A stretch of 63,479 nucleotides of DNA, counting the filler, from Collodictyon triciliatum (taxonomy: Eukaryota): assembly GCA_043381765.1 (NCBI GenBank). It is 5 parts of 5 records of this genome, joined end to end, with 100 filler letters (N's around TTAATTAATTAA, not from the genome) between each part and the next. Parts side by side here need not be neighbours in the genome. Positions count along the whole stretch, not along the records: positions 25,214 to 40,255 come from JBHJMP010001733.1; 4 more parts are not named here. One strand, 5' to 3'. A program made the translations under genes and the position numbers. Shown here one piece after another: positions 20,401-55,186 of the stretch (within the stretch, counting starts at the first letter, position 1; the number at the start of each line of letters is the position of its first letter). The notes beneath the pieces are model-generated. The model worked only from the letters and a program-made list of their open reading frames with translations. It was not told the DNA's origin and searched no databases.

Positions 20401-23400
20401 ACAAGTGTCGAGTAGTTTTCTGATGTATCGTTGCCTAAGTGGCGAAGGGTCATGTGCAAGATGACGGCAATGTCCTCGTCACTCTTCTTTGTGATTTCAC
20501 GCAACACAATCCAGTCAGCGCTCAGATGCTTGAAGAGAGTTTCAGTGTCGGAGGCACCACGGATATTGAGAGGCTTACGAATGGCCGACATGAAAAGAAC
20601 AGCGTTCAAGATGAAGCGAATGACACGGAATGAAATCGGGTGCAGATTCTTCTCAGTGTAAGTCTTTGAACTTATAATGGAGAATGGCACTTCATAACCC
20701 TTTGGTGAACGCTCGGTGAGGTCGGAAATGTACGCGCGCTCGGCCTTGTAAGGGAATGGCGCGGTGTCGCCGTCACGCATCACGCGACGATGACCAGTCA
20801 GCTGTAATTTGTTTTTACAAAGCAAATATAAAAAAAAAAGTAGTGTTATTGAAAGAGTGTCTGAATACGTTGCATAAAACTATGTAATCAAGGTATTATC
20901 ATGTATGAGCCTTTGACACTCAATAATCTCAGCATAGAATCTCAAGTAATAAGGTCAAATGTACAGGAATATGTCCAGTTCCTCCTGTGTCTTCGTTTCC
21001 GCACTCTTGGCAACGAACAACTTCGTACGGCCAGGTACAATTCCACACATTGTATAGGCACCCATTGGGAGAGACATATACACCATATCCAGTAGTCATA
21101 AGGCGAGCTAGGTGGAACATTATTCGGTTATATTTTGAAATGCATGCATAGTTCAAGACAAATATCTATGAGTATCATAGTCGTAGTGACGATAAGGGAG
21201 GTTATTGATTAATAATTGCGTCTAAAAAAAAAAACTTTTGATTATTTACGCTCTAATTACCAGCTTCCTTTTTGCGGGGGTCGTCTGGCATGGAGACCCA
21301 ATAGCTGTCCATCACGGAGTCGGGCTCGTTGATCAACTTCAAGAATGGGGTGGCGTTTTCTGAAACAGAAATTACGCTGGCAAAGATATGGGCTAACACT
21401 GCAGTGAGGTATGCGTAGAAATGTGGGTAGTTGGGCTTGCAAACGAGCTCTGCTATCGGTAGCTTGTTCTCAACAAACAGAAGCAACAGGTCCTTTTGGA
21501 ATTGAGGCCAAGGCAAGTCTTGGATATATTGGACGATTTCGGCTGTGGTAAACTTGCGAGCGTGCTCGTCGATAGCTCCATATCGAAGGAAGANNNNNNN
21601 NNNNNNNNNNNNNNNNNNNNNNNNNNNNNNNNNNNNNNNNNNNNNNNNNNNNNNNNNNNNNNNNNNNNNNNNNNNNNNNNNNNNNNNNNNNNNNNNNNNN
21701 NNNNNNNNNNNNNNNNNNNNNNNNNNNNNNNNNNNNNNNNNNNNNNNNNNNNNNNNNNNNNNNNNNNNNNNNNNNNNNNNNCACACACACACACAGAACG
21801 GTATAAGAAAAATTAAGAGGAAAGAAAGACAAAGAAGGAGGTGAGAAGGAAAAGGGTGATAATTACGCGGTCATAAATGGCCAGGGTGAATGCCCTCTTG
21901 AAAGACATGCTGTTCTTTTCTTCAGCAGAGTACTCTGGGAACTGGCCTGTCTTTCCAGAAAGAGAAAACTCGAGACAATCGACAATCTTGGAGTAAAACA
22001 GGTTGTGACTCTCGATTTGCTGCTTGGCGTTGGTAAGATGGGAGAAGGGAATAGCAATCGGGACGTCACTGGCGCTCTGTTGTCCGAGAGTTCGGACCAT
22101 TTCAGAGTTTGATAGGGCAGTATGCTTCTGGAGCAAAAGAAGGATGATTGTGCGCGAGAGTTGGAACCCGCCCTTACTGTAGAGCCTCTTGATAAAGTAT
22201 TTGATGAGAGCAGAGAAGTAAATGCCCTCAGCTCCAGGCAGCGTCATTCCAAAGAGAGTCATGTATTCCTCAGAAATGGACTGAACCTCGCGGAACTCCA
22301 AAACAATATCAGATGCCAAGGTGTCGTACAAGTGCTTTCTGAATGCGATGTTCTCCAGCACATCAATCATGGAGTCGCATGAGGAGAGAGGATTCTCCTT
22401 AACAAAATCGATGTAAACCTGGCTGTTCTCGTAGTGGAGCTCTGAGATGAAGTCCTGGAAGGTTTCGATGTAGAGAGCCGCAAGGGGGCATGATATAGAA
22501 GCAAGTGGGGCAAGCAGTGTCTTTGCCTTTGACCTCCATTGGCTGTTGGCCCAGTTATTTCCTTCTAGTTGTAGGACTCTGTCAAAGATGGATGTGCGGA
22601 TTGATTCTGTGACAAAGATGCCAGAATTGACGAGGCGGCTGTCACTGTTGAAGACAACACGGGATATTTCATCCAGAAGGAAATCATCGGTGATATTTGT
22701 ATTGAGGAAGAGTGAGCGCGCTGAATCAAGGAACATTCTTTCGATGCAAGAGTTTTCAAGAGCAAAGTCCTTCTTCACAGAGACGCAGAAGGTAATAAGC
22801 TCCTCCCACAGCTCAAATGACTGGAAGTGTGATGGGTCGGTGATGGTGGATTTCAGGGTGCTGATAAACTCTTCAATTCGGCTGCGTACAAGTTCATTGC
22901 CTGAATTTGAAATCAGAATTTGGGACAGCTGCAGTAGGCGGTACCTCACAGTGACATCAACAATTCCCTGGTCATCAGACGATATGGCAATCTCGTCGCT
23001 TTCGATTCTCTTCTTTTCCAAGTTGAGGATATTGACCAGCTTTCCGAGCTTCTCAAACAAAGCATGGTTTTCGTGAGAAAGGATTGTCTCGTCGCCGAGA
23101 ACAGCCAACAAGATTCGCACCTCCAGGTCAAGCATGCTGTCAGGCTCCTCCGAGCGAATAATGTCGTAGATGCGTGCCAGCGACTCGAGGGGAACAAACG
23201 AAAAGACTTGGTTCAGCTCGCGCAGGAAAGTTTCGTGGTACCATGAAATGACATGGACTGTGTGCACATAGCGGATGGACTTGAGCAGCTGCAAGGCAGT
23301 CTCAAAGAACTCCAACATGATGTTTGAAATGCTTTCACGCACTTCCTCGTCCTTGTGAATGGAAAGGTACTCGAGTGAGTGCACGTAGTCGATGAGATAC

Positions 23401-24930
23401 AGATTGGTGAAGGGGTCCAGTTCGTCTGCGTGGATGTTGTATAGGAATGGGAAGGACAGGCGGCAGAGACCCTCAAGTGCGACGATGCATTGATTCATTT
23501 TTTTGTTGGTGTCGATGATGGACCCAACCTCGCCGCGGTATCCTTCGATGGACGAAGCGATGAATGTGCTGAACGGGAAAACCAGCCTGCTCCCCACATG
23601 GAGCAACCTCTTGGATACACCCAAGGCAACCTGGCCTTTCGTGTTGCCCGCCTCGAGTCTCCAAAGAGGGTCGTACGAAAGGAAAGACAGCCAAATGTCG
23701 TGAGTGGATTGCTTCAGGCTTGGTTGTTCGTTCGACTGCAGGAGGAGGAGATTGCGTCCGTAGCAGGATATGTCCAAGAGATGAGACAGCTCGGTGTAGA
23801 ATGCCTCGCGCAGCTTCTCAAACATGGCGTTTCGCAAGCAGCCCTCCTTCTCGAGCAGCTTGATATCCTGGGCATCGGTAGGGCTCCACAAACTTGAGCC
23901 GAGGAAAGTGGATGTCTTGTTTTTGAGAGCAGTGATGAGTCTGTGCAGGAACTTGGCGCGGAAGGATTCATCCCCTCCTCGGCGGAAGAGCTCTCCGAAC
24001 AGCTGGATTTGCTCGGTCAAGTGTGAGCCCATCTGCGTGGCTGAAAGGGGCATGGCACGAGCGTATTCCTTCTCAACAAGCACTTCAAAGTTCATAATGT
24101 TTGAATCGCTGATGGCCTGTGAAACCGTCTTTTGCACCAGAGATGAAAGCTCTGGAATACCGTCGATATATCCAGGAAGCAGCGTATCAAGGTAGATGTG
24201 GGTCCATGTCCGGTCAAATATGGTGGATGCCTCGGTTTTCTTTTGGTCCTTTGTCTCAAGTGCATTTGCCCTCTCTGCACGCTTCGAACGGCGCGGGACG
24301 TAGTGAATGAGAATGATGTGCTTCTTTGAAGGGTTGTGGCAAGTTAGCTGCTTCTCCAAGTAGATAAATCTGAAGTGGTCCAGTCGTTCTAATGAGCAGT
24401 ACGATGCTTGGAATCCAACAATAAGATAACTCTCTTCCTGCTTGTTGAAGAAATCTCCAAGGCATGTATTGAGTGCTTGTTCTGTCAGGAGGCAACCCAG
24501 GTCCAGGGTGTCGACGGTCCAATGGAACTTGCGCTCTAGAGTTTGCTTCACAACGTCCAGGCCAGACCCAAGCGCGTGGGTCCAGACAGAAAGGTGAAGT
24601 CCGTTGGACTTTGTGTGAGGGAAGCTCTTCTCCACTCCATGCTCGCCAATATAGGACATCAAGTCAACAAGATTTTGGTGAGATTGTTTGTCAAAGTATA
24701 TGTCTCGGACTGGCAGGTTGGCAATCTCGAGCTCACTCCCGAGGTTCAAGGCCCATTCTGGCTTGGCAATCCAGATGAGAAGCTTCATGGAATGGGCAAA
24801 GATGTCCTCCGGTGTCTCTGCGATAGTACTTGCGCACAAGACAAGGGACTGGAATATTCCATCGTGGTAGCCAGCGAATACTATTTCGGGGCTCCACTCG
24901 CGACTCTTGACGTGCTGAGAGACCCAATTC
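17438..24930 (-). CDS. RNF213: RNF213/mysterin-like E3 ligase, C-terminal part (late AAA/E3 core, RZ finger, CTD); 5'-partial
   Basis: 3-kb exon with KHIILIHYVPR/WTHIYLDTL and FPFS motifs; RZ-type finger PNG..C..CQECG..GG..H; C-terminal motifs YLP..WMK, YNYGEG..FDYD.LE, TGGDP..L..Y, LCHI.GL match the RNF213 order; N gap 21594-21781. Confidence 0.8.
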
Positions 24931-27259: not shown

Positions 27260-34963
<7,704 letters not shown>

Positions 34964-35300
34964 GATCTCTGTCTTGTCTTTCTCTTGACTCGAAACGTAG
35001 GTTTGAGACGGCAAAAAGAGAACAAATCCTAAAGTCCTTTTCGCACGCGACTATGGTTTGGCTTGGCCTTTCGGTTTCTCGTGATCGAAGGCGGTTTTTT
35101 TTTTTTTTTAAGCTGGAGGAAGGCAGGATTAAGACTCGGATCTCCCACAGATCCTGCATTTTAATCGAAACATCAATACGTAGAGAAGAAGAAACTCTTC
35201 AGCATATGCTGGACTCGGCGGATTGTTTGTTCCTTCCAAGGTTCTTCTGCTGTGTATTGGATGTGTTTGAATCTTTCGGCCAGAACTAATTTCCTTGAAA

Positions 35301-35903: not shown

Positions 35904-36936
35904 GGCGATCTTGGTTCTTGAAACCAAAAAAAATAAAAAATAAAATAAAAAATAGCGATCAGATAATTCAAAGGATAGAAAGCAACTAAAAAAAAAAAAA
36001 ACTCATCACCAGCTTCAGGAGAGAGACCTCAAGGATAACCGGAAAAAAAAAGAGAAGAGAATATAAAGAAGAAAGCTTGGCAATATAGCTCTTAAACAAG
36101 ATTCTAGAGTGACTAGTAGAACTCATCAAAACGAAATGTCTATTTATCGTTAGCCTAAACGATATCTTATGCATAGATCCCCTTCAGGAATGAATGAAAC
36201 ATGAATACAGTATTAAACCCATACGCAGCTTCAATATTTTAATTTCTTGTCATCTCATTATACCAGAGTTCGATGCTTGTCATTCGAAGCCATTCGATTC
36301 GATGAGCACCCCCTGTGCCCTGAGTTTTTTCCCCTACCAACCCCTAATATATATCTATATCAAATGATGCACAGATGAATTAGATTATTTAATAGCGCAC
36401 ATTTTTAATGTGGTTCGTGCCCTCCTTTTTTTTTTTTTTTATCTACGGTCGAAATTTTATCACAAATGTACATAAAAAAACTTGGTTGCTCACCTTTCCA
36501 CCTCGAAAAAGTTTGACAGAATGTTTCCATCCAAATATGAATTTTTGTTGTAATTTAAATTATCCTTATTTATACTTCTTTTTTTTTTTTTTTGAAGCTT
36601 GCAATTTTTTGTTAAGGCACATTTAGAAGGACTTAACGAAAGATTATTATTCTATCTGATAAATAAGGAACAAAACATCTCCTACATATCTAATGAATTG
36701 GTCATACTTGATAAAAGAACCTTTATATCAAACTTGTATAAATTATCTGTAAACAGGATACTCAAGATCGATTTGTCCATAAAGCTGAATTTTGACGTTA
36801 TAATTTGGTAGATAAATCTAAATTAGGTAAAGTCTATGATAGTATTTTTCTTTGAATACATCTCGTATTTAAAATGACCAATCATGTTTTCAAATAAATT
36901 CTTATTTCTCACACTAAATGTATATTTACCAAATCG

Positions 36937-39900
36937 ATGTCTAAATTTTATAGAATGGAATTATCTCCAAAGGGTGCCCGAGTTGCTGTGCTTATAGGTA
37001 GTTTATAATTTTTTTTGGAATCCTAATAATAATTTAGCATAAACACTTGGTCTCTAGGACTTTTCATATCTGGACAATTCTGCCTCGGTCAAGAAATAAA
37101 CAATCAGGACCTTTCAATTCGTACTCTTTCTGCCCATACTAGCACTGTTTGGAGTGTTACTATTGCTCCCGACGGCTCGAAAATTGTTTCTGGAAGTGCT
37201 GATAGAACAATTAAAATTTGGAATTTTTCTGATGGAACTTTAATTCGCACGCTAACTAGCCATACTAGTGATGTTCGAAGCGTTGCTATTACCCCGGATG
37301 GATTCAAAATTGTCTCTGGAAGCTTCGATAAAACAATCAAGGTTTGGAATCTTTCTGATGGAACTTTAATTCGCACTTTGACAGGATTTTCCTACATCGT
37401 TGAGACTGTTGCTGTAACTCCCGACAGCTCCAAGATAATATCTGGATGTAGGGATATCAAAATTTGGAACATACTTGATGGAATCTTGATTCGCACATTG
37501 ATTGGTAATACAGGTGGTGTTAGTAGTGTTGCTGTCACACCTGATGGTGCCATGATTGTATCTGGTAGTGAAGATAAGACCATCAAAATATGGAATCTTT
37601 CTAATGGTGACGTAATTAGCACACTTTCCGGTCATAGTCTTAAAGTTAATTGTGTTGCTGTCACACCTGATGGTGTCATGATTGTATCTGGTAGTGAAGA
37701 TAAGACCATCAAAATATGGAATCTTTCTGATGGAATTTTGATTCGCACATTAATGGGTCACACCGATTGGATTCGTGGGGTGGCTGTTACTGCTGATAGT
37801 TCTATGGTTGTATCTGGAGGTGGGGATACGACAATTAAGTTATGGAATCTTTCTGATGGGACTTTGATGCGCACACTTACTGGTCACACTAATAATGTTT
37901 GGACTGTTTCCGTCACTCCTGACGCCTCAAATGTTATATCTGGAAGTCAAGACAAAACGATCAAAATATGGAGAAATTGTAATCCTGGCTCCTTCTATGA
38001 TATAGAGCAAGAATCATGTCAATTGTGCGCAGTTGGAACCTTCAATAATGGGCTAAGTCCAACTTGTACTATGTGTCCAACTGGAACATATAACCCATTA
38101 ATGGGCTCCGCCAACCAAGATTCGTGTATTCCATGCGCAGCTGGCTCTTATAATTCATTAATTGGGCAGTCAAAGTGTACTACATGTGTAGCTGGAACAT
38201 ACAATCCATCAACAGGCTCCATCGACCAAAATTCGTGTATTACATGCGCAGCTGGTACATACAACCCATCGACAGGCTCCACCAACCAAGATTCTTGTCA
38301 TTCATGCACATCTGGAACATACAATCCATTAATCGGGCAGTCAAAGTGTATTACATGCGCAGCCGGAACATACAATCCATCGACAGGCTCCACCAACCAA
38401 GATTCATGTCTTCCATGCCCATCTGGAACATACAATCCATCGACAGGCTCCACCAACCAAGATTCATGCCTTCCATGCGTAACTGGAACATACAATCCAC
38501 ACACTGGCGTTGGAACCAATTGCACTTTGTGCCCATCTGGAACATATAACCCAGAAACAGGCCAAAGTGAGTGTATTTCCTGTGGAAGTGAATGGAACGG
38601 GGACAAGGTTGGCTCAAAGACGATAAAAGATTGTCTGTGTTTTCGTTCAACCTATTTAGAGCCCAAATCTAGTCTGTGTAAAGATTGTCCATATGGCTTT
38701 GTGTGTGATGGAACCAGTAATGTCGAAGTAGCTCCTGGTTATTGGAAAGCTCCCAGCTCTAACGATGTGTATATTGCATATAAATGCCTTAATCGAGATG
38801 CATGCATTGGAGGAAACCACACATGTGCTGATGGTTACACAGGGGTATTATGTGGTGTCTGTGAAGAAGGCTATGGCAAAACAGGCGGATTTTTCTGCAC
38901 TAAATGTACATCAGCAGGGTTTAATGAGTTTTTGTTCTTTTTGAGTATCTTAATGCCTATGGCATTCATTATATATATGATAGAACAATCCAGACAGCCA
39001 AAAACAGAGAGTATTCAAATATTAAAGACCATGGCAACACATTTTCAAATTTTATCATATTTGGCCAACTTTGATGTTAATTGGAGCTCAACTATTATAT
39101 CAATAATGAAAATCCCAGCTATTTTTTCGTTTACGCCTTCTATAGATACTTATACATCTGAATGTCAGTTCGAAATGTCCATATATGATAAAGTACTTTA
39201 CTCGATGGTCACTCCGATTATCTCAGCTTTCGTTGTAGGTATTATAATTTTCATTAAAATTTTATGGAGGTTACGTAAAAATCTGATAAGAAGGACAGAC
39301 ATTAATATCTATAAATTGAGTAAAAAATTCGCGTACTCTATACTAGTTTTGTTATTTTTCATCCACCCAACAGTTACATCAACAGTCTCAAAAATATTTA
39401 CCTGTGAGGTATTGGGTGATGAAAGCTATTTAAAGGCTGATATGTCGATTATGTGTGATGGTTCATCTTATATTTTATGGAAAAACACATCTTTGGCCTA
39501 TGTTATTTTGTACTGTTTTGGTGCTCCCCTAATTCTTGCAGCATACATGTTTTATAAAAGGGCATATTTGTTAAATTCTAAATCAGAAACGTACAATCTA
39601 TTGAGGTTTCTGGTTGATGGCTATACTAAGGAATGCTATTATTGGGAAATTGTGACCATGATGCAAAAGCTTCTTGTTGTCATTACCAGTGCGTTCTTTT
39701 CCCCAACTCTGCAAATTTATTTGGGTTTATGGATATTGATATTAAGCATTGCATCTTCAATATATTTTGAACCTTTTGTATCTAAGGAACTCAAGAATTC
39801 TCAGCTTTGGTCTATCTCAGTTCTATATTTTACACTCATGACCAGTTTGCTGTTTCGATACACAGCTCTAACATACTTTCAAGAGACTGCCCTCATAATC

Positions 39901-40071
39901 ATGGTTGTATTTTTCAACGGACTGATAGGTATTCTTTCATTTATGAAAGCAGGACCAGCATTTATTGCGTCCTTGTTTGAAAATATTAAAAAAATTTCAC
40001 GATTTATCGTTAAGAAAGTGAGAGATACATCGATTGTTGAAAAAGCCAGTAAAAAAATGAGAAAAATTTAG
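36937..40071 (+). CDS. Signal peptide + 7 WD40 repeats + Cys-rich (ephrin-receptor-like/GCC2-GCC3) repeats + about 9-10 TM TRP_C-like domain
   Basis: Exon 1 36937-36997, intron 36998-37057, then one open exon to TAG; N-terminus RVAVLIGLFISGQFCLG-QE; seven GH..V..V..TPD..IVSGS.DKTIKIW repeats; CxxGTYNPxxGxxxC repeats; GY...YYWEIV...K motif in the TM region. Confidence 0.88.
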
Positions 40072-40157
40072 AGAAGGAATATAAATGAACGAATTTCCAT
40101 GATATTCCTCCTCCAAGTTGCTAGAAATCTCCCGTTCATATTATCTTTTCTTTCAAT

Positions 40158-40255
40158 CTCTCTCTCACTCTCTCACTCTCTCACTCTCTCACTCTCTCAC
40201 TCTCTCACTCTCTCACTCTCTCACTCTCTCACTCTCTCACTCTCTCACTCTCTCA
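40158..40255. repeat. CTCTCA-type microsatellite at contig end
   Basis: Direct tandem repeat. Confidence 0.9.
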
Positions 40256-40495: not shown

Positions 40496-42673
40496 GCAGA
40501 AAATCATATATATGTTGGAGTTCCGTCTATTAGATGTATATAATTGCGAAAACATTAAGAGTTGCACCAGAAATCAAGCACATTCATGTTTTGATTGATT
40601 GAAAATCTTTAGATAAACCACAAATCTGCTGATGAACGCATTCTTTCTGATGTAAATGTCCTCGGATATGTAACACCTTGGTACGTGCATAAAATAAGAA
40701 TGTAACGATAAAAAATGAGACATTTTTTTCTTCATCACATATGGTTCTGCCATCTTGAATGAGAACGGGTATAGTCTACTCCCAAATCGTATATTATTTC
40801 ATTTTCGTCTTCGATATTATTTTTTTTAAGGCTCACGAATATATTCATCGTAAATGTAATTGTAAGATTGTTAATCATATTATTCATGATGACCTATCCC
40901 TATTCAAGCTCTTTAATAACCTTTTTTTCAATATATATCCATATTTACGATTCCTTTTACTAACATTATATTTATTTCGATGATTCTACGTTTTCCCCTT
41001 TCATTTGTTTAAGGAATAATAGAGGCTACGACGTCGCAAAACAATACAGCAAGTTCAACATGATAAGCCCTGTATGGATTCGGCTTGTATGGAATGGAAA
41101 GCAGTTCTCCTTTGAAGGGCTACATGACATCGACGCCGGCTGGTTGACTGACGTGAGGAAGGCATCCAAGATTAATGTAAAGATGATTCCCAGAGTTCAG
41201 ATTTCTCTCCAGGATATTGCAGGATGGAACGCTTTGTGGAACCAGAAACTTCACGCCTCATCGCTGATTCGGCAACTGTGCATGTATTAATCAATTTCAT
41301 CTCTAAAAGACTCTCAAGAAGAGTCAAAGTAAAGATCTATTTATTGTATGTAATCAAAAGTGAATTCAAATTGTGTGTTTCCCATCCCAGTACTTGGATG
41401 AGGGCACAATAGTTTTTTTTTCACCTCGTTAATGATACATTCATTATCATATAATTTATATAATGTGTATATAAGCACACACAAGTTCGACGGAATTTCA
41501 CTTGAAATCTGGGATGAAATTCCTTATGATATTGCTGGAGATTACAAGGACGCCATAGATTTTGTGAAGGCTCTCTACAATAGCCTCCAAAAGATAAAGA
41601 AGACGCTAGTGTTGATTGTCCCAGTACACATTTGTCTAGAATTCAGAAATAAGCATCCAAACAGATAAACCTTAAAAAAAGGGGAAGAACAAAAAAACAA
41701 TTTATATTCAAAAGATAGATTTCTAATAGAAACAATTTCCTTCATGCTCTTTTTGTAAAATTAATAAAATCAAGAATTGTGCAAATATAGCCGATAGCTC
41801 CTGATCATGTTAAGGCACCTTTCAAAAGAAATCACTACAGAGAGCTACTCGAGCATGTGGACTATTTCTCCTTTATGACATACGATCTTTCGAGTGATTC
41901 CGGGTATTTTATCCATATGTTTATTGTTTTTGGATGATTTTAAGCTCGCTGAATGTTGATTTCTCTTCAGTTCTGGTCCAGTTTCGTCTCTCCGCATTTT
42001 CAAACAGTGTATCGAAATGATAAGCGAGATGTCTTCATACTATGAGCACAAAGTCTTGATTGGCCTAAACTTTTATGGTTCTGCATTTCTATTTTATTTT
42101 CTAAAAAAATCTCATTGATAACCATTCATTTCTACTTTCCTTCATCCTGCGCAGTGATGACTAACTGAAAAAAAAAGCATCGATATAATATTGCTGCATC
42201 GAAAACCAAAAAAAAAATAATGCAAAAATATTTATACCTGACGCGATTATTTTTTCAAAATAATACCATATAGGTAGATACTACACTACTCCAAAAGGAG
42301 GTGATGCGATAGTTGGTCGTGATTATATTTCTCTTCTGCAGAAGCACAACCCGAAGATTCAGTGGTCAGAGGAGGATGCTGAGCACTACTTCAACTACGA
42401 AGTGGACCGCAGGAAACACGTGGCATATTACCCAACGATTCATGTAATTGTTGATAAAAGATGCATCATTACTCCGAGTTTTATCAACTCCCACATGGAA
42501 CATAATTAATAGCGATACTTACAACACACAATCGCATAACTACATTTTCATGGATTTGTTGTCTTGCCAAACAGAGTCTCAAAGAACGCATCAACGTCAT
42601 CACGGAAGCAAGGTTTGGCATTGCAATTTGGGAGTTAGGACAAGGATTGGATTACTTTTATGACTTATTCTAA
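40496..42673 (+). CDS. CHID1: Chitinase domain-containing protein 1 (non-catalytic GH18), 5'-partial
   Basis: [75 protein letters not shown]. Confidence 0.95.
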
Positions 42674-43498
42674 CTGAATGAGGATTTAATAAATTGCTCC
42701 ATCCCTTCAGTTTGTCTTGTATTTTACCTCAAAACTTGTCGAGAATGAATGCATTATCAAATATTCTCTTTGTGTTCTCAGCGGGAATCACGTCAAGTTT
42801 TTTTCATCGGAATATGACTCTCTCTTTCATTTTTTCCCTTTAGCTTTTTATGTGTAGCATTTCAAACAAAGGAGGTGGTAATAATCGTGGGGTTAACAAT
42901 AGTTAAAGCCACATAAAATGTAAAATTGTGAGATGGTCCAAGTTCTGAGATATCATAGAATGACGATATGAGCATTTTGATAATTTTTTTTCCCTTACAT
43001 AAAACTGTTTAACATTTTTTGATTTCATTTCGACAGTTAATCGAGAGAAAAGAATATTATTTAGCAGAATGTTTCGGTCTTAGCTTGCTTGCTTCAATAC
43101 GTATAAGAAACTTGACATATAGTGTCCTGTTACAAAAATGACTCACCAGCTGATAATGCTTATTTTATCTTATCTGTAAATAGGAATCTATCAAACATAT
43201 ACCGAAAAATTAATTCCGTCTCAGCAATAAATTCTTTTATGGCTTTTTCTTCGGCCTGGTTATGAGATTGACGAATAAAACATTATGAATCCAAACCACA
43301 CAAAAAAAATATGAAAAAAGAGATTCTAAGTGACATAATTTAAATTTTTTTCTTTGTTCTTTTATTTGTTTCGGGTCGCTTTCTTTTGCACTCTGCTGGG
43401 GTGTTCTTTAGTTTTTGCTCCTTTTTTTTTCTTTCATTCCGTTTCCAAGGCTGAGATAGCACGCTCACTCGTTCATTCATTCCTTGGGTCGAGATTCG

Positions 43499-46400
43499 TC
43501 ATATCGCCTGAACAAAGTCGATATCATCAACTTTCCGCTCCTTGACCAAATCCCTGAAGTCCGGGCGAGCATCCGGGTTAGTGTCCCAGCAAAGCTGCAT
43601 CATCGCAACAGCCCGCTTATCCATCCCACCACGGATTTCTGGCCTCAAGCCTTTGATGATATCGAACTGTAGTCTCAGTTGGTCTCTTCCTTGGTGCGGG
43701 ACTTCCCTTGTCTCGATTTCCCACAGAATGATTCCGAAGCTGTATACATCAATCTTTTCGTTGTAGCGAAGGCCTTGCATAATCTGAATAGTTTTTTGAA
43801 TATAAAAGGAGTAAATAAAAAAAGTAACAGAAACGCTTCGTACAACCTCATATTCCAATCATTAACGGAGCAAATTGATAGAGTTGATGACCTCGGGAGC
43901 CTGGTAAACGACCGTTCCGCATTTTGTCATCGTCCTGTTGTTTGCTTTCATTCGCGCAAATCCAAAGTCACACAATTTGCTGTCATAGTTTTTATTTACC
44001 TACACCATTGGAGCAAACGGATAAGTAAGAATAGAGTAAAAAAAAATGAATGAAAGAAAATCATGCCCACCAGTATGTTTGCTGTTTTTAAGTCGCGATG
44101 CAGTACAATCGGACTCATCGAGTGCAAATACACCATCCCATGAATTATGCCATCAATAATGCGAGACCTATGATGAGACAAACATTATATTGAGCGACTG
44201 CATTATGTTTTGAAAACCTGCTTTCCTTTCCATATTTGTGGACGAGCCTAATAAATACTTGTCATTTTGGTTGATAACAATGGTGTGGTCCTGTAGTAGC
44301 TGGCGAAGATTTCCAGGCTCCACAAACTCCATTACAATCGAAAGGTGAGAGAAGTCTGTGCAGGCTCCAATGAACTCAACAATATTTGGATGCTTCAGTT
44401 TTCTGTGAATTTTGACAATAATGGTATTAATGGTTGCTCATTTCGTCAGATAGTCATAATAATGTTTCCGAGCGGCGTATTGTCTTCTTACCTTAGTGTC
44501 ATCATTTCCGAAAAGAACATAATGTAGTTATCATCCACGGTTATATTTCCACTTCCAAGTGTTTTCTTCACCGCAACTTTTCTTCCCTAAAGATATGACA
44601 GGTTCAAAATTATCATTATTTAGAAACCGTATCGAGGGAGATCAAAAAAATCAATTGAATAAAGGATAATGTTTAAGTGGTGTCGGGTTCATCACCTTGT
44701 ATTCTCCCACAAACACAGAACCAAATGACCCTGAACCAATCGGCTTCGAATCCATTTGTACTTCATTCAAATCGATTTCCCATTCTTTCTTCTCTCGTAG
44801 CTTTTCTGTCAATGGCTCCAGTTTCAATCTACCTGGATGTGGGATTGCTCCCAATGGCTGCAGATTTTCAATGGCAGGGAAAGATACTTGATTTTCTTGT
44901 CTAGAGTCTGATATGGTTTTTGTTTGAGTCGGAACATTCGGAAGTTGGCTGCTCTGTGGAGAATTGATGCTAGGCTATAAAAACACATTTTCATTAGAAA
45001 AGGAAACAGAGAAGCCACGCAAGTATCTAGTGAATGCGTCTCTGGAATTATAAATTACTTCACTCGATGAAAAAATATTTAAAAAGTCTGAGTTCATTTC
45101 TTCATGGTAATGAACGCGTTTCTGGATTGCTTTCGGCACCACCTATGACGAACCATTTAGTGAGTTTCCTTTGTTATGCTTATAAAGGTTAATTACGATT
45201 ACTTGGTAAAATAAATTCCTATCATCTTGCACGCCCATCTGACTAATCTGTTGGATGAAGTTTTCATTTTCCAGTATCTTTACTTTTTCACCCATAGCCT
45301 AGCACAAAATAAATGGGGTATTATCAAGAAATCAATAAATTGTGATTAATGTAAATAAAAAAGTATAGTAGAAGGCATAAAAACCTTGTACACTGCTTCG
45401 GTCAATATTATTTGGCCTCCATGACACAATCGACTGATTTTGATTGCTTTGGAGACTGGCTATGAATCAAATCTTTGAATATATTGAACCGATAGCCCAT
45501 TGTGTGTTAATCCTGAATGTAAACCGACCTTTCCATAAAAGATTCTTTTGTTTTTTTCTTCATCAACCCGGCTTCCGCAAACTCCGTACTCGACCGCCTA
45601 AGCATACATAGAAAAGGCATTGAATTCCGATCACATTTCAATTTCTTATTTATTTTTTTTAAAAAAAAAGAGATAAGTTGAGAAACTTGGGAAATAAAAA
45701 AACCGACCATCCGCACTCTGAGACCCTTTAAATCCCCCTCAGCAACAACTTTGCAGTTTTTATGTCTTAAAAGTTCATCAGGCCATTCCATCTTATTCAA
45801 AACCGTTTGCATTTCAGAACAGAATCTATAGAAACAAAACAATCAGGTGAGAAGAATCGCAAAAGATTATATAACATTTTTAAATCAAAGCTTTTACTTG
45901 ATTGCCTCAATTGGCTCTGAAAACACAACTATGTAGCTCTCCTCGTCATTTTGACTGATGTAGCCATGGTACTTTTTGATTTCCTAGAACAGAATCACGA
46001 GAGTCATTCAGAAGGTAAATTATAAAGGGGAGATTACCTCAATGAGTCCATTCAACTTACTTGCTTGACCGTTTTGTTATACAACATCAAGGATTCAACT
46101 GCTGATTCAGGAATATCCTCCCACAATGCCTCGGCTCCGAAAATCCGTGCACAAACAATACACATGTCACCGTCTACTGGAATTTCTTCTTCGTAATCCA
46201 TTATGGCCTGTATTTTTAAAATACGAAATTTGATTACTTTTTGATCCAGATAATTTTTAGTTCAGTATAAATAATAATAAAAAAGATAAAAAAAAATATA
46301 AAAAAGATAAAAAAAAAGGTAAAAAAGGTAAAAAGACAAAAAAAATTAAGATAAAAAAGATAAATAATGAACCATAAATGAAGAGTTTGAAGAGTGTTTC

Positions 46401-49400
46401 GACCCATCGACCAATACCTATATATTTTTAAAAATATGTTTCAAATTTGATAAAGACTGATTATAAACCTGAAATATAAGTATCGATTATCAGATACAAA
46501 CGTTTAGTTTTTTCGATATTTCCTGAAATGAAGGTCTATCCACTGCGTTCTGAGCCCATGTTTCGACGATGAATGACCGGATGTCATGTGGTATATTTTG
46601 TGGCATTGTTGGACGTAGTTGATTCATTACAACTTGTACTGTCACAGCAAAAGTGTTATCAATCTCATAATATGGGTCTTTCCTTGATACAATCTCCCAG
46701 CAAATTATCCCATAACTGTAGACATCAGCACTTGCTGTATATTCTGCACCACCAATCACTTCTGGCGCAAGCCACAACATACTTCCATTAACTTCTTCTT
46801 GGTTTGATGTTCCTTGGATTGTTGTCAGTCCGAAATCACTGCCACGAGAAATATTTAGCGATAACTTTTTTTTTAATGAAACAATATAAACTTACCTAAC
46901 TTTCAGTCGGCTTCTGTCATCAACCTTCATATTATTACAACATCAGCAATAACTCAATAACTTCATTAAAAACATAAAAATGTTTGTTAGTTAATGTTTT
47001 TCTATGAAAAAGTTTTGTTTGAAATTCAAAATAACCAGAATGTTCAAGCTTTTCAGGTCTCGATGGATGATGGGCGGATTATGCATGTGTAGGTATTGCA
47101 TACCTGCATAATATCCTTTGACTTCACACTTCCATTCAGCGCAAAAAAAAAACCAATAAATTTAAATTTCTAATAAAACCTTTCGCTATGTCACACATGA
47201 ATTGAAGTCTCTTGAACATCGCAATATTCATGTCTTGGTGTAGAACATCATATAGACTTCCTTGGTGCATCAGTTCGCAAACAAGACGCAAATCATTTTT
47301 TTCTATGCACGCTCCCATGTAGAGGATGATATTTGGATGTCGCAATTCCCTTTTTGATATGGTATTTAAACTTTTATATGGGATTGAACTAAGAACTATC
47401 TCAATAAAAATACTCACACCATGATTGATATTTCACGCTTGAACGACTCTATTTGTGTCTTGTCAAGTTTCTTCTGAAGCACTTTGATAGCGACCTCAGT
47501 TCCTCTCCATTCTCCTTTGTAAACCTACAAACCGATGAAGCAGGATTTTTACACAAGAAATATCTCATATGCTGCATTTTTGTGTAATTTTATTAGTTTC
47601 TTACATCTCCAAAGCTACCACTTCCTAAAAGTTGACCATATGAAAGCTCATTTGGGTCAATAATCCCATAAAGCCTTTTTTCAGCTCCTTTCATAGTGTC
47701 AAGAATCCTTTTGCGATAGAAGAAAACTGCAGTAATCATAAGCATGAAAGAAAATCCTCCAACACTCCCAACGATTATGCTGACAGTATTTGAGTCTTTT
47801 GATCTAGGCTCTGCATTTTTTTTTATCAAATTTAGTGTTTATATATCAAATAAATAGTGCTATAAGTTCAAACTTGGTGTCAGAGTATTTATGACAAACC
47901 TTTAATGCAGCCATCCTTTATTAATGCAGAGATTTGCAAAAGTTGATGAGTTAAAAATATCGCTGATTATGTGCATAATTATCAATATGTGTTACATTTT
48001 GAAGCAGATATCCATCATCACAAGCGCAAGTCATCTCAGAATCGTCAAACTTTGAGTATAATGGACATTCTATTTTTTAAAAATAATTTAAGATATGTAT
48101 GCAAACATATGAATTATAAAGGTAGTTCATACTGGCGTGTGTAATCGTGAATCCTTCGCATCCAAGACATGGTTTATATTTTGATTCAGTATTTGTAATC
48201 GCTGATGTAAATCGGATGATAAAGCCAGTTTCAGAATGGAAAATATTCTGTTTATTTTCGTCTCCATATTTCGGTGCCGGCATTTCTTTTATCACAAGTC
48301 CACTTCGCAAATCCAATATTTCAATTCTATTTTGAACATGAAAATAATCAGCAAAAGTACATATAAACATATTAAGGTCAAGAAAAACAAACCTATCATC
48401 CGCACGAATCCATTTTTGAATGGAAATGTCGGTAGCATTCGGCAAAATCCATGTACAGTTTGTGTTTTCCAGATACACCCCATCGCCGCTTCCATCATCA
48501 AATGTCGATGAATGAAAGGAACTTTGAATATGCTTTGGTGCTTTCGAACAAAACCCTGAATTGAGTGTTAACTCATTATTTTCCTAATTAACACTAAAGT
48601 AAATTAGCTCCAATATGTTAAATTCACCAAGTACCTGGGCTGTATGCCACCACTTGATTTGTCGTGGAATATCCATTAGAGCCGCCAAAGCTTACCATCA
48701 AGTCATTCATCATGAAACCTGCCTGCTTTGAGATTGATTCATATCCTCTGATATAGTTTGATTGATGCATCAGAGCCTGTTTTGCAAACGCTGTATTAAA
48801 ATGGTTAGTAAAGCAAGTACGCGCAATTTTGAATAAATGTTGAGAAGATAACAAACCATGCTGCGTCATCCAATAGCCATATACTTTTTCTGTCTCGTCA
48901 ACACCACTTATTATTGTATTTTCATGATATTTTCCGCAAATGTGGTTTGATAGAAAAGGAGTCTGTGCTGGAGATTTATATCCCATTTCAGTCCAAGTCT
49001 GATTACCTACGATGAGCAGCTGTTAATTTTTTGGAAGGCTAGAATAAGTCAATAATATTATATATATATTTACGGGTGTCGTATATCCAGTGGTCATTCA
49101 GAGGCTTCCCATTAGTATCGTATCCTCCGTAAACAGAGAAACTTCTTTCATCAATAGTGCAAATGCTGTGGTATGTGCGTCGGGGCTGGTCATGATTTGA
49201 AATCAGTGTAATAATTCAATTGAGCAAACGTGTTCCAAAGAATTTCAATAGATATTAATGAACTCACAGGTACTATTTTCGGAATAGTGTGAGAAAATAT
49301 CATTCCTGTGTTTGTATCCACTTCAATAACAGCAGAGTAGAACTCGACCTTTCTTGAACCAGGCATCGTCTTGTTAAAAACATTTGTAAGTAGTTAAAAA

Positions 49401-52400
49401 GAATATTTTAAAGTCTGGTTTTTTTTATTTTTTCCTTAATTCGATTCAAATAACTAAAGTCTGATATTTGATTTACCTGCCCGCCCCACATCCACATGGT
49501 TTGGCCAATATGGCTGGCACGGATGCCGTATCGATTCATGGGCCGTTGAAATGTAGACAGTTGGTTGGACATCGTTAAAACAGACCAAGTTTTCGTTTCT
49601 AAAATAACGCATTAAAATAATGTAATTTATTTATCAAATCATTTTAGGATAACTTTGTTCAGTATATGATTCCACGAAACGAACCCATACCAATATCAAA
49701 AGACCAGAATCTCTCATCAACCACACCAAAATCTGTGCGACCACCACCCACAACGATTGATGATAACGTGGCACTGACGAACGCACCAGCCCTTGGTGAT
49801 GGCCCGACAAGAGAGGAACCCATGAATAGGGGTGTCCAAGTTGCATTTCCTATTTTAACAAGTGCTCCGTTTTTTCGTTTTATTAAAAAAAAAAAAAAAA
49901 ATAGATATCGAAACGAACAAAAATTTATGAAATTTCGAAATATACCTGTATTGAAAACCCAAAGGTCATTCAACATAACCTCGCCGATATATTCGGTTGA
50001 GCCTCCAAAAACAACGAATGAGTCATCGTCGAACTTGCAAGTCCCTGGCTCCGTTCGGCCGATGGGCTCTCTTGCAATGGATGCGTCCACCCAAGTTCGT
50101 TTTTCTGATAATGCCGAATGCTTGAAATAAGTGGCTTAAACGTGAATTGTAAAGTGAAATAAAAACAACCTGCATCCCAAATCCATACATCATTAACGAC
50201 ATTCTTGGACGTTGTCGCTCCTCCGATTATCATAAGATTCTCTCCTGAACTTACAAAAGCTGCTCCAAATTTTGGTGGTGGGGTTGTGAGCGGCAATTCA
50301 GGAAGAGAAAGTCCGTAGTTTTGTCGGTAAACAACTTGATATGAATCTAATGAATTAACACATGTTTTGAAATAAATAAGAATCCATAACAAATTTATCG
50401 TATTATTTAATCAAATACCCATGTCAAATACAATAAAGTCCGAGAGAGTGTCTCCCTTGCGAACTCCACCGTACGCGTGAAGCTCGTTTCCAAAAAATCC
50501 GTACGAATGTTGTTGCCTGCCAAAGAAACAAGAGCCTCCTTCCTCGTCACAAAAAGTGCACTCATCCAGCTGTATTTCCACCTTTTCTTCGAACTCAAAA
50601 TCTGATTAAAAATATGTCAGATTTTATGAACATGTAATTAATGTTAAAAAAAAAAAGAAAAAAGGAACCTAAGTCATAAATGAGCAGTGAATTTGGCTCT
50701 TCTTTTGAATCTCTTCCTCCAAAAAACATTATTTTGCTGTTATGGAAAATCATCGAGCTGAATGAACGAGAGTCCTTGATGTTCACAAGGATTTCATTCC
50801 ACTCGTCGGTATCTATAAAGATGAACCAGTTTTAATTAAAATGAAAAGGAATATTTTTTCTTTTTACTGTTGAAAAAACGTATCACCTGGTTTATAAGCA
50901 AATGCTCCTAAAATCAAGCTTGATTTCTCCTGTTAAAATAAACTTTATCTTTTACTTTATTCAGCTTTTAAAGAAAATATTGAATTCTTGACAATGTATG
51001 AAAATAATTATTATTTATGCTCAAAATACATCTTCGCCGCCAATCACGTAAATGCTGCCGCCTTTTCTTTGGCAAATGGAACCAATGAAATCCTTTGGAG
51101 CGATTGTTTTCTTTACCCATGTCTTAGTTTTAGGCTCTAAAAAGTAAACAGAATTATCCAAAGTCTCTGTTTTCCCACCAATTAGAACCCCGTATGTGTC
51201 CATCGCTACCAAGCAGCTCTGTATTCTTCGCGGTGGTACAGTTCCGTTCATTTTCATCTTCATCCAGCGAGCATTGACTGATTAAAATTATAGTCTGAGT
51301 TAATATATAGTACTCAATAATACGTTTATTGACAAGACCTATTGATTTAGAATAGTAAATGGAATCCATGTCAAAGTAGTGCTCTGTCTTTGATGTGTCT
51401 GCTGATGTGCTTCCTCCGACAAGGAATACAATCGAATCAATTAATGCAGCTGAGGCGTATATCATCGGTGGTATCCCATGACTAATCTCAATCGATTTTG
51501 TTGTCTCCAAAGTTGATTTATCTAATATGATAGCAATTTACTATTAAGAAAGCCTTGGTTCCAAAATATTATTATAAATTACCAAAGGTATGTGAAGCGA
51601 ATTCTTCAGTCCTTTTCATACTGATGCATTCTTTCTATTGAAAAATATTAGTCTTAAGAATACATGAATAAAAATTAATTGAATAAAAAGTAAAAAATAA
51701 AATAAAAAATTGATATAAACCAAAATGATACCTGATTTTCATCGGGTTGGACAGTGCCCTCGAAGCAGTCGATACATTCTCCTCTAAAGTTGATGAATTT
51801 TCCAGATTCACAGACACAACCTGAAATCCTTGCGTTGAATCCAAGGCTGCATTCTACGATTGTTTGATTTTTACGTTTGCTGAGAAATTTTTTCTAAAAT
51901 TAAAAAAATACACAAAAAAGTGTTACGGAATAGTTTCATTGAAAATCCTTCGCTTGTTTTTCCGTCTTTGTGCACTTTGAATGTGAGTGTTGTTTTTCCA
52001 GTCGGAATCTTGATTACAACACCTTGGTTCATCTCGAAAAGTGAAAGCTATGATGAACTCTTTAAGTTACAATCTACAAAAAAAATTATTATTGAAAGCA
52101 GTATTACCTCCTTGGCAGTGTCATTATTGTATAGTAAATCCCCATCACATTGGTCTTGAGACAGAATTAAAGTAGAGTCCAATGTGATATTAACATACTC
52201 AATCTGTCAAGACGATATCAGTATTTTTAATTTATTAATAGAATAAGAATAAGAATAATAAAATAAGAAGAATTATAATAATAATAATAAATAAGAAGAA
52301 TTAGAATAAGATTAAGAATAATAAGATGGTACTCACCACAATAAAATTCGTCTGGGAAATAATCCATTGGCAGTTTGTCCCAGGGAAATACAGAAATTCG

Positions 52401-55186
52401 CCGCTTCCGTCACTAATTGTAATGTCTTCGTTGGATACATGTTTCACTCCGTCACACCAGAATTTACCTGTCAAATTATATTGGAACAGTGAGCAAATAT
52501 CTTTAGTGCGTATTTATTCCATTTCATTCGATTACTTAAATCTAATTTGTAAATTCCATTTGTTGTTTGTAAATCGCTGTTATATCCTCCAAATATTGTG
52601 AATTTATATGATTCAACGAGCATCAGCGAATCATATCTGCCTGGTGCCATTTTGTTTTCGATGAAGATTTCATCCCAATATGATGTTTTTGCTGATTAAT
52701 TGATTTTATATTAGCAGAAAAATAATAGATGGTATTTATATTCTTTTAGTAGTCCAAAATCTGATTTATTTTTTATTTACGGTTCCCAAGCCACATCAAT
52801 TTTTTATTGGTCTCCCCGTGCCCGCCATATGATATAATATTTGAAGAGTGTCCAACTATGCTCTTATCTGCAATTTCAGCAGGCAAGGTGGATACCATAT
52901 ACCAAGATTTTTTCCCTGTGTGTAATTTAAATTGAATTTATCTTTCAGACAACTGAAATAAGTTCTGTTTAAAAAGAAACCGAACCTTCATCGAAGCACC
53001 ATATTTCTCTTTTGCCACTATATGATTCAACCTTGTAGTCATCATAGAAACAGAATTTATCATCGATGATAATTCCTTTGGCATATTTTCTTAAGCCTGG
53101 TACATTTAAAGCTATATGGCTTTGAACGTTCAGGGTTTCCATGTCAAAAATGGCTATATCACTTCTTGTGGGAGCCTCGTCTGTATTCATGCCACCCCAT
53201 ATGAATAGTCTGCTTTCTAAGAACACGAAAGCTGAGTTGTATCGCATTCCAATATCGTCATAGCCTCCCTTTGGCTCGAAAATGGACCAAGTTGCAGAGT
53301 CTGGTATTCCAAGATAATTGAATAAGTCAAAATATAACGGAATATGATTTCATAAATACCTACCAAAAGAAAATAATCGGAACACAGGCTTTGCATACGA
53401 TTCATATAAACCCCCGATGAGGAAAAGCGAGTTGTTGAAGTATGCGAACGCCTTTTGGGTTAATTTTTTAATATATATTTTAGTAACAACTTTTTTTTAC
53501 AATTGATCGCTCCAAAATTATGACACAAAACATACCGCTTTCTGTACTGCGGGGGCGCAGCCGTCAGAGTCTGGGTGACATACAGACTCTTGTACGATTC
53601 TCTTCCATGAATATGTCTCTAAGCCATGTTTGAAAATCAACAAATTAATTTATTTTTGCATGAAATAGGTATTACCCGTATTAAGTATCCAAAGGTCGTT
53701 AATTGGTTGGTAGTAATCCTGATTTACGTATCCTCCAAACACAGCCGCTTCATTTTCAGATATTTTGGATATGTGTGGATTATCTCTGCTCAAAGGGTAC
53801 GTCGACAGACTGCTATTTATCCACGATTTTTCATCTAATGAGGCCATCAATTAAATTGAAAGATTCGTATTATTCGAAGACGTCCAAATATAAGAGACTT
53901 ACCAATGCCGAAAACCCAGACGTCGTTGTAAACTTGATTGTATCCTCCACCAATGACAACGAAATTTCCTTCGTAAATTGATGATGAAGACAGCATTCTC
54001 TCACAAGGAATGTTTATCGGATATCCAGTTTGAAAGTAAGTCTTCTTTCCCACGATATTTTCGACACTTAGTGTATCTAAGACGTAAAATTAACAGAAAA
54101 TGACTTTAAGATTTTAGGCATTATCTCCAATTAAATTTGAACAAAGTTCTTTTAATTTTTAGAAAGAAAACTGACCCAGATTCAAAATTAACACATCATT
54201 CGAAAATATGTTCCAATAAGTATCCAAAGCACCCCCGAAAATGACCAACTTGTTCTGAAATACAGAAGCACTTCCAAAGGCGGGAATAGAACTTTCATAG
54301 CTTATTTCTTCCTTTTCTTTCCATTTCATCTCAGCTTGTTTTAATATGGAATGTGTGATTACTTAACAAAAAAAATAACAAAAAGAAATTGGGAAAATAA
54401 AACGAACTTACTTGTGTTAAATCTCCAGAGAAAAGGGAATGAATTATAATAGTAATAATCGGATGAAAAGTATTCAGGAATTCCTCCAAACATCACCAAA
54501 GTATCTTTGTATATACCGGAGTAGGGATTGAAAGTTATTGGAGCGTTTTCAAAATCATCAGGCCCTGGTGAGATAAGGCTCCATTTTTTGGATTCTGTTT
54601 CGGATTAAATTGAAATTATTTCATAATTTCGACTTAACTTTTGCAATACTAAAATGGTTACTAGTTTCGTATATCCAAAGTTCAGTAGATTCGTATCCGT
54701 CGTAGCCCCCGTACACAATAATCTTGTCGTTGAAAGAATTACAACTCATCCATCGCCTTGGAGAAGGATTTATTTTCGACGCATATTTTTCATTCTCCCA
54801 GACAAAGGATACCAGGTCGAGTGAATACATTGTGTTTGTCGTCGCTCTTGTGATAGCCATTCTCCCTCCATACAGATAGAGCTACACATTGACAGTTTGA
54901 ACTTAAATTCAAAAGAAAGCAGCATTGTACCCGAATATAATGAATAAGACCTTGTTCTTGATAACAGAAGTGCAGTAGTATCTCCTCCGCACAGGTATAT
55001 CACCACTTGTTGTTTTCCAAGACCATCCGAGTTTTCCTTTAAAAAAGATAATCGTTAGGTTGGATTGGATTGTTTCTCAAATGAATAGAATGAAAAAAAA
55101 TTAGGCTTTCAACCTGCGTCCAAAATCCAAAGACGGTTGAATAAAGGCTTCTCTTGGACGTATTCATGGTTTTTACTGGTATGATA
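43499..55186 (-). CDS. Large single-pass receptor: Kelch repeats + CUB + Cys-rich/EGF ectodomain, TM, TKL kinase, degenerate class III nucleotide cyclase, second TKL kinase; about 50 introns; 5'-partial
   Basis: Many FGG/YGG..NDLW Kelch blades; two CUB-like DGSG..Y..TNC.W.I; TM IIVGSVGGFSFMLMITAVFFYRKR; two kinases each with GSGSFG, VAxK, HRDLK, DFG and APE; ALWE...GLRVRM...HGGQI cyclase fold between them. Confidence 0.88.

Follow-up and report, generated by a model that had tools for sequence, protein, structure and literature searches.

A preliminary description of one gene of Collodictyon triciliatum proposed that it encodes a nearly intronless, multipass receptor displaying an NLR-like WD40 propeller outside the cell. 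This raises the question of whether such a head does face outward, whether the gene stands alone, and how its parts came together. The gene lies within what we call the window, the whole stretch of DNA that was analyzed (63,479 nucleotides, with five parts joined end to end by filler), and all coordinates below count along it. It starts with an ATG at 36937 on the plus strand and is modeled with two exons and one intron, giving a predicted product of 1024 aa with the following parts.

36937..36997, plus strand: exon 1, encoding the n-region and the first half of the hydrophobic leader (61 nt; this exon type recurs in 56 of 60 paralogues)
36998..37057, plus strand: intron of 60 nt, GT..TAG, phase 1, inside the predicted signal peptide; predicted from sequence
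37058..40071, plus strand: exon 2, stop-free until the TAG at 40069-40071
37058..37089, plus strand: remainder of the signal peptide, with cleavage predicted from a small-x-small motif after Gly31 and before Gln32
37117..37983, plus strand: seven WD40 repeats forming one propeller (our own HMM; Pfam WD40 E 3e-69)
37984..38781, plus strand: Cys-rich stalk of CxxCxxG units (Ephrin_rec_like), with tandem periods of 60/111/171 nt
38782..38907, plus strand: DUF7630 (PF24633), a membrane-proximal Cys domain (E 1.6e-6, over the cut-off; in 33/33 aligned paralogues)
38914..39966, plus strand: nine-helix membrane domain, predicted N-out/C-in (AlphaFold model; K+R loop pattern)
39967..40071, plus strand: short basic cytoplasmic tail (tail alignment of 65 members)
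40160..40255, plus strand: CTCTCTCA microsatellite, which ends the contig and is common to the window gene's own clade

Without splicing, the ATG frame runs into a stop after 23 codons, and exon 2 contains no Met upstream of the WD repeats. The donor at 36998 agrees with the split Gly codon of the paralogues, while an alternative in-frame donor at 37001 is the one preferred for this gene by our family-wide leader script. The resulting leader has a basic n-region, a hydrophobic stretch and a small-x-small site, which bears out the short upstream exon with a signal-peptide-like N-terminus that had been proposed. The seven WD40 repeats followed by a Cys-rich stalk were likewise recovered, with Pfam finding six Ephrin_rec_like stretches in the stalk, and the estimate of about 9-10 transmembrane segments is in line with the nine long hydrophobic helices of the AlphaFold model of the membrane part (pLDDT 83). 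The repeats had been called highly similar; there are indeed seven, but their similarity is moderate, with a mean identity of 60% (50-75% aa, 67% nt). Each has its variable codons at positions 10, 12, 28, and 30, and five blades bear an N-x-S sequon after Trp. We found no catalytic or signaling domain in the protein with Pfam.

The ORF is intact except at its end, where ~20 residues of the family tail are absent. A remnant resembling the family tail end, in another frame, lies after the stop at 40050-40125. Three pieces from sequencing runs are near-identical to the stalk and chassis of this gene (X1, 501 nt with 6 differences; X2, 159 nt with 0; X3, 151 nt with 0), X2 matching letter for letter over 39982-40140 and so spanning the tail-end remnant. 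Since X3 alone among these is recorded as RNA, the pieces give a weak hint of transcription. As judged from its sequence, the gene is real, with a predicted spliced leader, WD40 head, stalk, DUF7630, and nine helices.

The direction in which the head faces can be read from the family as a whole. In the 60 genes whose upstream DNA is available, an acceptor in phase 1 lies 95-130 nt upstream of a fixed point in the first repeat, and YAG sites in the leader region number 65 in phase 1 versus 7 and 5 in the others. A Met-started exon can be joined in phase 1 in 56 of the 60, 48 of these exons being hydrophobic, versus 4 and 6 genes in the other phases (0 and 3 hydrophobic), and a small-x-small cleavage motif is present in 43 of the 48 hydrophobic leader models, in 22 as VxG/Q, where the slash marks the cut. 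The sequon N-x-S/T after Trp (repeat positions 36-38) occurs in 407 of 858 family repeats, as compared to 3/97 in NACHT-WD40 proteins of the same genome and 90/1584 in database WD proteins; the repeats are related by descent and these counts are not independent, and counted per gene the sequon is found in 51/65, 0/9, and 3/119, respectively. Loops of the membrane domain contain 0.17-0.24 K+R per residue when odd-numbered versus 0-0.07 when even-numbered, which fits a positive-inside, N-out/C-in arrangement. Because leader intron, sequons, and loop charge agree as three separate lines, the WD40 head is probably extracellular or luminal and the protein probably surface-exposed, upholding the secretory leader and outward propeller that had been suggested, although WD40 rings ordinarily serve in binding within the cell. 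If the gene model were wrong, or the leader an uncleaved anchor, the WD40 domain would be cytosolic. The moderate hydrophobicity of the window gene's leader (19-residue mean 1.6) would suit this, as would the RNA, none of the contigs of the four runs examined spanning 36600-37075 and thus the intron, but we give the idea hardly any credence given the conserved intron and cleavage motif, the sequon enrichment, the N-out charge pattern, and the 34 Cys that occur within the 320 residues after the head.

The window gene has many relatives in its own genome. A 426-aa chassis query returned at least 98 matches on 93 contigs, 88 of the 98 stop-free. These are the scored matches among 176 candidates and a lower bound, because a WD query of the genome (1962 candidates, 150 scored) brings in 20 further contigs, all 20 with the same head type and most running off the contig edge within the stalk. 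The paralogue set was made of the best 80 of the 98 chassis matches by length of cover, and full-length members have a chassis identity of 43-74%. Counting the window gene, 44 copies retain an intact 5' end, and every one of them has a WD40 head; 36 have repeats in multiples of seven (21 with 7, 8 with 14, 6 with 21, and 1 with 28) and 8 have other counts. Their stalks range from 0 to 90 CxxCxxG units, and the longest in the family reach 140 units, with ORFs of >3000 aa. At locus L149 an array of at least 41 WD repeats stands behind a leader, and at L158 the same leader and head sit on an FG-GAP body, confirmed with Pfam; L156 looks alike.

The remaining copies are truncated at contig ends or have an ORF that starts within the stalk or late in the head. 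In 15 of the 80 the start lies inside the stalk, 11 of these with more stalk immediately upstream, and since the tail end is missing in the window gene as well, some members may be dead genes or assembly errors. Of 68 members, 24 have a CTCA-type microsatellite after the stop; most of these belong to the clade of the window gene, and many contigs end in this repeat (carriers listed are window positions 40160-40255 and loci L013, L027, L031-L057, and L101). On this census the window gene is one member of a predicted lineage-specific repertoire of about 90-100 genes or more, which agrees with the modular, variable receptor family that had been envisaged. The same description's recent one-off assembly does not fit paralogues that differ this much in the chassis and have the WD head in common.

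Variation within the head is concentrated at a few places. Entropy across 565 repeats is highest at positions 10, 12, 28, and 30 (3.4-3.9 bits), the pairs 10/12 and 28/30 flank conserved Val and Asp residues, and the four residues occur in 666 distinct combinations in 842 repeats. We place them on the top face from the available text of PMC1805685 and general WD40 structure. Variability alone is generic, because the same four positions are equally variable in bacterial WD proteins. Codon models with a shared dS gave omega of 2.0-2.7 at these positions versus 0.21 elsewhere (2dL 75-123; 7-20 close pairs among 89 propellers, chosen by scaffold identity), and a counting method gave 2.07 (95% 1.1-3.8; 15 pairs). 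In six pairs chosen by chassis alone, omega was 2.6 at the four positions (2dL 58.6), with 0.21 for the scaffold, 0.15 for the chassis, and 0.54 for control positions; purifying selection on scaffold and membrane anchor is shown by these codon estimates. When the four codons were given their own rate, omega fell to 1.1-1.3 with a rate of about 2 in three of four fits, values we read as not above 1, and was 3.3 in the remaining one; counting against the four codons' own dS gave 1.2 (95% 0.64-2.0). A deep-tree fit, which is saturated, gave 1.06, and repeat pairs chosen by overall identity, a choice biased downward, gave 0.95 for six positions.

The own-rate and deep-tree values would be expected if the family had simply been amplified neutrally by duplication and conversion, the four positions being unconstrained surface sites and their excess an outcome of homogenized scaffolds or multi-nucleotide changes, and the star-like WD tree of the family and its many broken copies are in keeping with this. 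Yet even at omega = 1 the four codons would need a rate 2.3-3.3 times that of the codons beside them, the adjoining loop codons 8-9 remain at 0.8-1.2, and conversion tracts would presumably be unable to skip single codons without selection; we regard neutral amplification as unlikely. Per pair, 22-26 of the 26-28 codons at the four positions differ. What stands is that these codons diverge at least 2.3 times faster than adjacent synonymous sites. Diversifying selection is the simplest cause but is not proven, since a locally raised rate would look the same as omega>1 in these fits.

Repeats and heads also move between genes. For 481 of 565 repeats the nearest repeat is in another gene, and repeats are 58% identical in nucleotides both within and between genes. 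Head and chassis similarity are correlated (rho 0.73, 33 genes). Exchange of WD heads between genes is shown, on phylogenetic grounds, because an AU test on 20 single-propeller genes finds that the WD data reject the chassis tree (p 0.00015) and because the head of L061 is mismatched with its chassis, its WD scaffold being 87-89% identical to those of L048/L038/L043/L054 while the chassis are 62-66% identical.

The chassis can be followed much further than the head. A profile of 33 paralogues found 16,177 relatives, two of the best five matches (P0124 and P0127) coming from Rigifila ramosa, and the Atlas clusters that lie closest consist of eukaryotic DUF7630, TRP_C, and Ephrin_rec_like proteins. 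RCC1, PQQ, FG-GAP, or Kelch propellers occur in 12 of 29 scanned relatives and the rest include TIG, LRR, DOMON, and filamin domains, with WD40 in 0/29. Our own WD profile found only one weak repeat among 152 chassis relatives and one weak repeat in each of 2 of 120 stalk relatives, and of 269 metagenome loci, the 80 examined had no WD repeats ahead of the chassis. In this genome the close copies of the chassis that have an intact 5' end are all WD40-headed, and the more distant DUF7630 genes have LRR heads in 10 of 10 examined (Pfam check on one); this second family (L161-L170) has apparent introns in the membrane part. By these homology searches the chassis is old and widespread, often with other beta-propellers, and only the WD40 head is restricted. 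As to whether the architecture is already widespread and ancient, then, the chassis is, but the WD40-headed form was not found elsewhere among the relatives scanned. The suggestion that the chassis is TRP_C-like becomes a lead only: PF06011, the domain of TRP_C and fungal FLC-Pkd2 proteins, matches 0/33 chassis sequences at E<=0.5, while among six listed Atlas clusters (scores 0.90-0.95) there are three in which 11-15% of members contain it. Searches with the membrane domain, which bear on a seven-helix fold of GPCR or adhesion GPCR type, gave no Foldseek match at E<=0.001 and no clear solved relative in the PDB by sequence, and its best VIA Z of 8.2 (Hrd1, rmsd 5.7, 191 aligned) is within background.

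Where the head came from is a separate matter. It had been proposed to be retroposed or HGT-derived, and a single graft in recent times, whether retroposed or brought in as a transferred cyanobacterial or fungal WD40 module, would account for a nearest named WD match in a Crocosphaera protein (56%) and a best PDB match to 2ymu (E 9e-156). It would also suit the intronless chassis of WD-headed genes versus the LRR-headed DUF7630 genes, which in 10/10 are interrupted behind the first helix, apparently by an intron, and the window receptor's GC3 of 0.29-0.35 versus 0.58-0.81 in its neighbors. Against it are the depth of the family, the retained leader intron, and a WD tree (63 proteins of the family, 120 from databases, and 8 NACHT proteins) that supports no donor; repetitive propellers, moreover, are amplified anew in all lineages (PMC9218822, available text). 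NACHT genes of the same genome are likewise low in GC3 (0.35-0.44) and intron-poor. There are at least 44 NACHT matches, and the 20 NACHT genes examined are intronless, with ORFs of 1376-3173 aa, so the window gene is not unusual in having few introns. A recent graft of either kind is thus highly improbable, while a founder retroposed or transferred long ago is possible. Because the leader intron is retained, copies would have spread as DNA and not been retroposed singly.

Other sources were considered and set aside. The 3' microsatellite is not a retroposon tail, with the intron retained and the repeat marking one clade (24/68). The genome's own NACHT-WD40 genes have repeats of another subtype, which group in a separate clade (8 proteins, support 1.0); these NACHT loci are an NLR-like repertoire in the same genome, and several of those at L121-L140 run, by eye, into their own type of WD40 and Sel1-like repeats. 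An Atlas search with the ectodomain returned plain WD40 clusters only, with scores under 0.8. Two metagenome proteins with homogenized WD repeats, P0095 and P0067, one of them sequon-rich after Trp, are placed within the family clade, with long branches and weak local support (0.69), which we treat as attraction; they are possibly a separate secreted WD40 family.

The contrast in introns with neighboring genes holds for the adjoining TTC21 and kinase genes, as judged from their short coding blocks, but not for a 1038-codon stop-free block in the window (21813-24929, minus strand), which has no Pfam match at E<=1e-5. The TTC21/IFT139 gene (27520-35050, minus strand, GC3 0.81) is divergent from the receptor and suggests a flagellated host. 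Downstream neighbors lie beyond a scaffold gap: short exons at 40600-42700 on the plus strand, which resemble a chitinase-domain (CHID1-like) gene and of which the scanned piece has no Pfam match, and an intron-rich stretch with Kelch-like and protein kinase pieces at about 43500-53400 on the minus strand, probably a receptor kinase.

The best reading, and in our judgment a probable one, is that the family is a non-self recognition repertoire facing the cell surface or the endomembrane lumen. The leader would route the head into the ER, where it would be N-glycosylated near the outer strand of each blade, and the disulfide stalk would set its distance from the membrane, which would differ from gene to gene. 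Binding would take place at the variable top face, the ligand being non-self and most likely a molecule on the surface of prey bacteria, parasites, or viruses, or possibly of kin; through the nine-helix domain, binding would then lead to a response, for example capture, uptake, or an ion signal. Growth of the repertoire would have come from DNA-level duplication, amplification of propellers and stalks, and conversion between repeats, by analogy with HNWD, yet outward-facing. A bolder version, which we put forward tentatively and would not ourselves count on, is an antibody-like outward WD40 repertoire of about a hundred genes or more, its faces diversified by selection and by repeat and head exchange, with a nine-helix transducer of undescribed fold, that separates prey, pathogens, or kin.

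Stalks of up to 140 units, ORFs of >3000 aa, dense sequons, the missing signaling domain, and the occurrence of the same head on an FG-GAP body would all be at home in a variable coat or decoy family, in which heads diversify to escape viruses, parasites, or predators, or serve as adhesins, and the membrane domain is an anchor only. Change is focused on four binding-face codons, however, and not on the whole surface, and nine helices held at omega 0.15 exceed the needs of an anchor, which leaves this explanation rather doubtful. Should the recognition repertoire be real, a free-living protist would have taken to its outside a diversification scheme of the intracellular WD40 sensors of fungi and bacteria, and would offer a testable model for single-cell recognition of prey or enemies. 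The family also offers a handle on a very large, unstudied family of eukaryotic membrane proteins with DUF7630 and nine helices.

Among known systems, the HNWD/NWD proteins of Podospora anserina (HET-D and HET-E) are like the Collodictyon family in having a multigene pool of WD40 repeats that are swapped between genes (PMC1805685, available text), and concerted evolution of repeats across genes is present in both. In HET-D/E, codons 7/9 and 25/27 are positively selected on the top face and flank a conserved Val and Asp (PMC1805685); the four fast codons found here lie at the same places relative to the Val and Asp, which supports the original comparison with NLR-like variable repeats, with the shared-dS omega of 2.0-2.7 here set beside 1.1-1.3 in three of four own-rate fits. 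Unlike the Collodictyon family, HET-D/E are described in that text as cytosolic NACHT proteins with a HET effector domain. The Collodictyon proteins have a predicted leader, sequons, a disulfide stalk, and nine helices, with no NACHT, and there is more divergence between their repeats (58% nt). The whole window gene protein is taken up by WD40, stalk, DUF7630, and helices, leaving no NACHT/STAND domain, and none of the 44 NACHT matches lies on its contig (C1733). Its WD40 sensor is N-terminal behind a leader and sequon-rich, versus cytosolic and C-terminal in HNWD/NLR proteins.

The ectodomain of plant CRINKLY4/ACR4 is a secreted seven-bladed propeller, termed WD40, followed by a Cys-rich domain, but disulfides bond its blades, which are most like those of BLIP-II and UVR8, and it is joined to a single helix and a kinase and is conserved, not diversifying, in the available text of bioRxiv 10.1101/2020.08.10.245050. 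Blades of the Collodictyon family are instead Gbeta-type with few Cys (0.7 per 100 aa), and the window gene has 3 Cys in residues 41-340, nine helices, and no kinase. Cyanobacterial WRAP proteins, with highly repetitive WD40, share the repeat type and blade numbers peaking at 7 and 14 (PMC9218822), and outward WD40 sensing is predicted for six cyanobacterial membrane orthocaspases (PMC7475262). As far as the available text of both sources goes, these proteins differ in being prokaryotic, with a single helix and a caspase or NACHT output; they are also without sequons, stalk, or nine-helix domain. Further counterparts are uncharacterized eukaryotic proteins with the same stalk, DUF7630, and membrane domain behind another head; the window gene follows their order of PF07699 repeats, PF24633, and multipass domain, and differs in its canonical WD40 head, which is lacking among the relatives scanned. 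In the article texts searched, we found no paper naming DUF7630 and no description of the leader-WD40-stalk-DUF7630-nine-helix architecture. By this comparison of predicted architectures the chassis is known, and what is new in Collodictyon is the WD40 head together with its mode of diversification.
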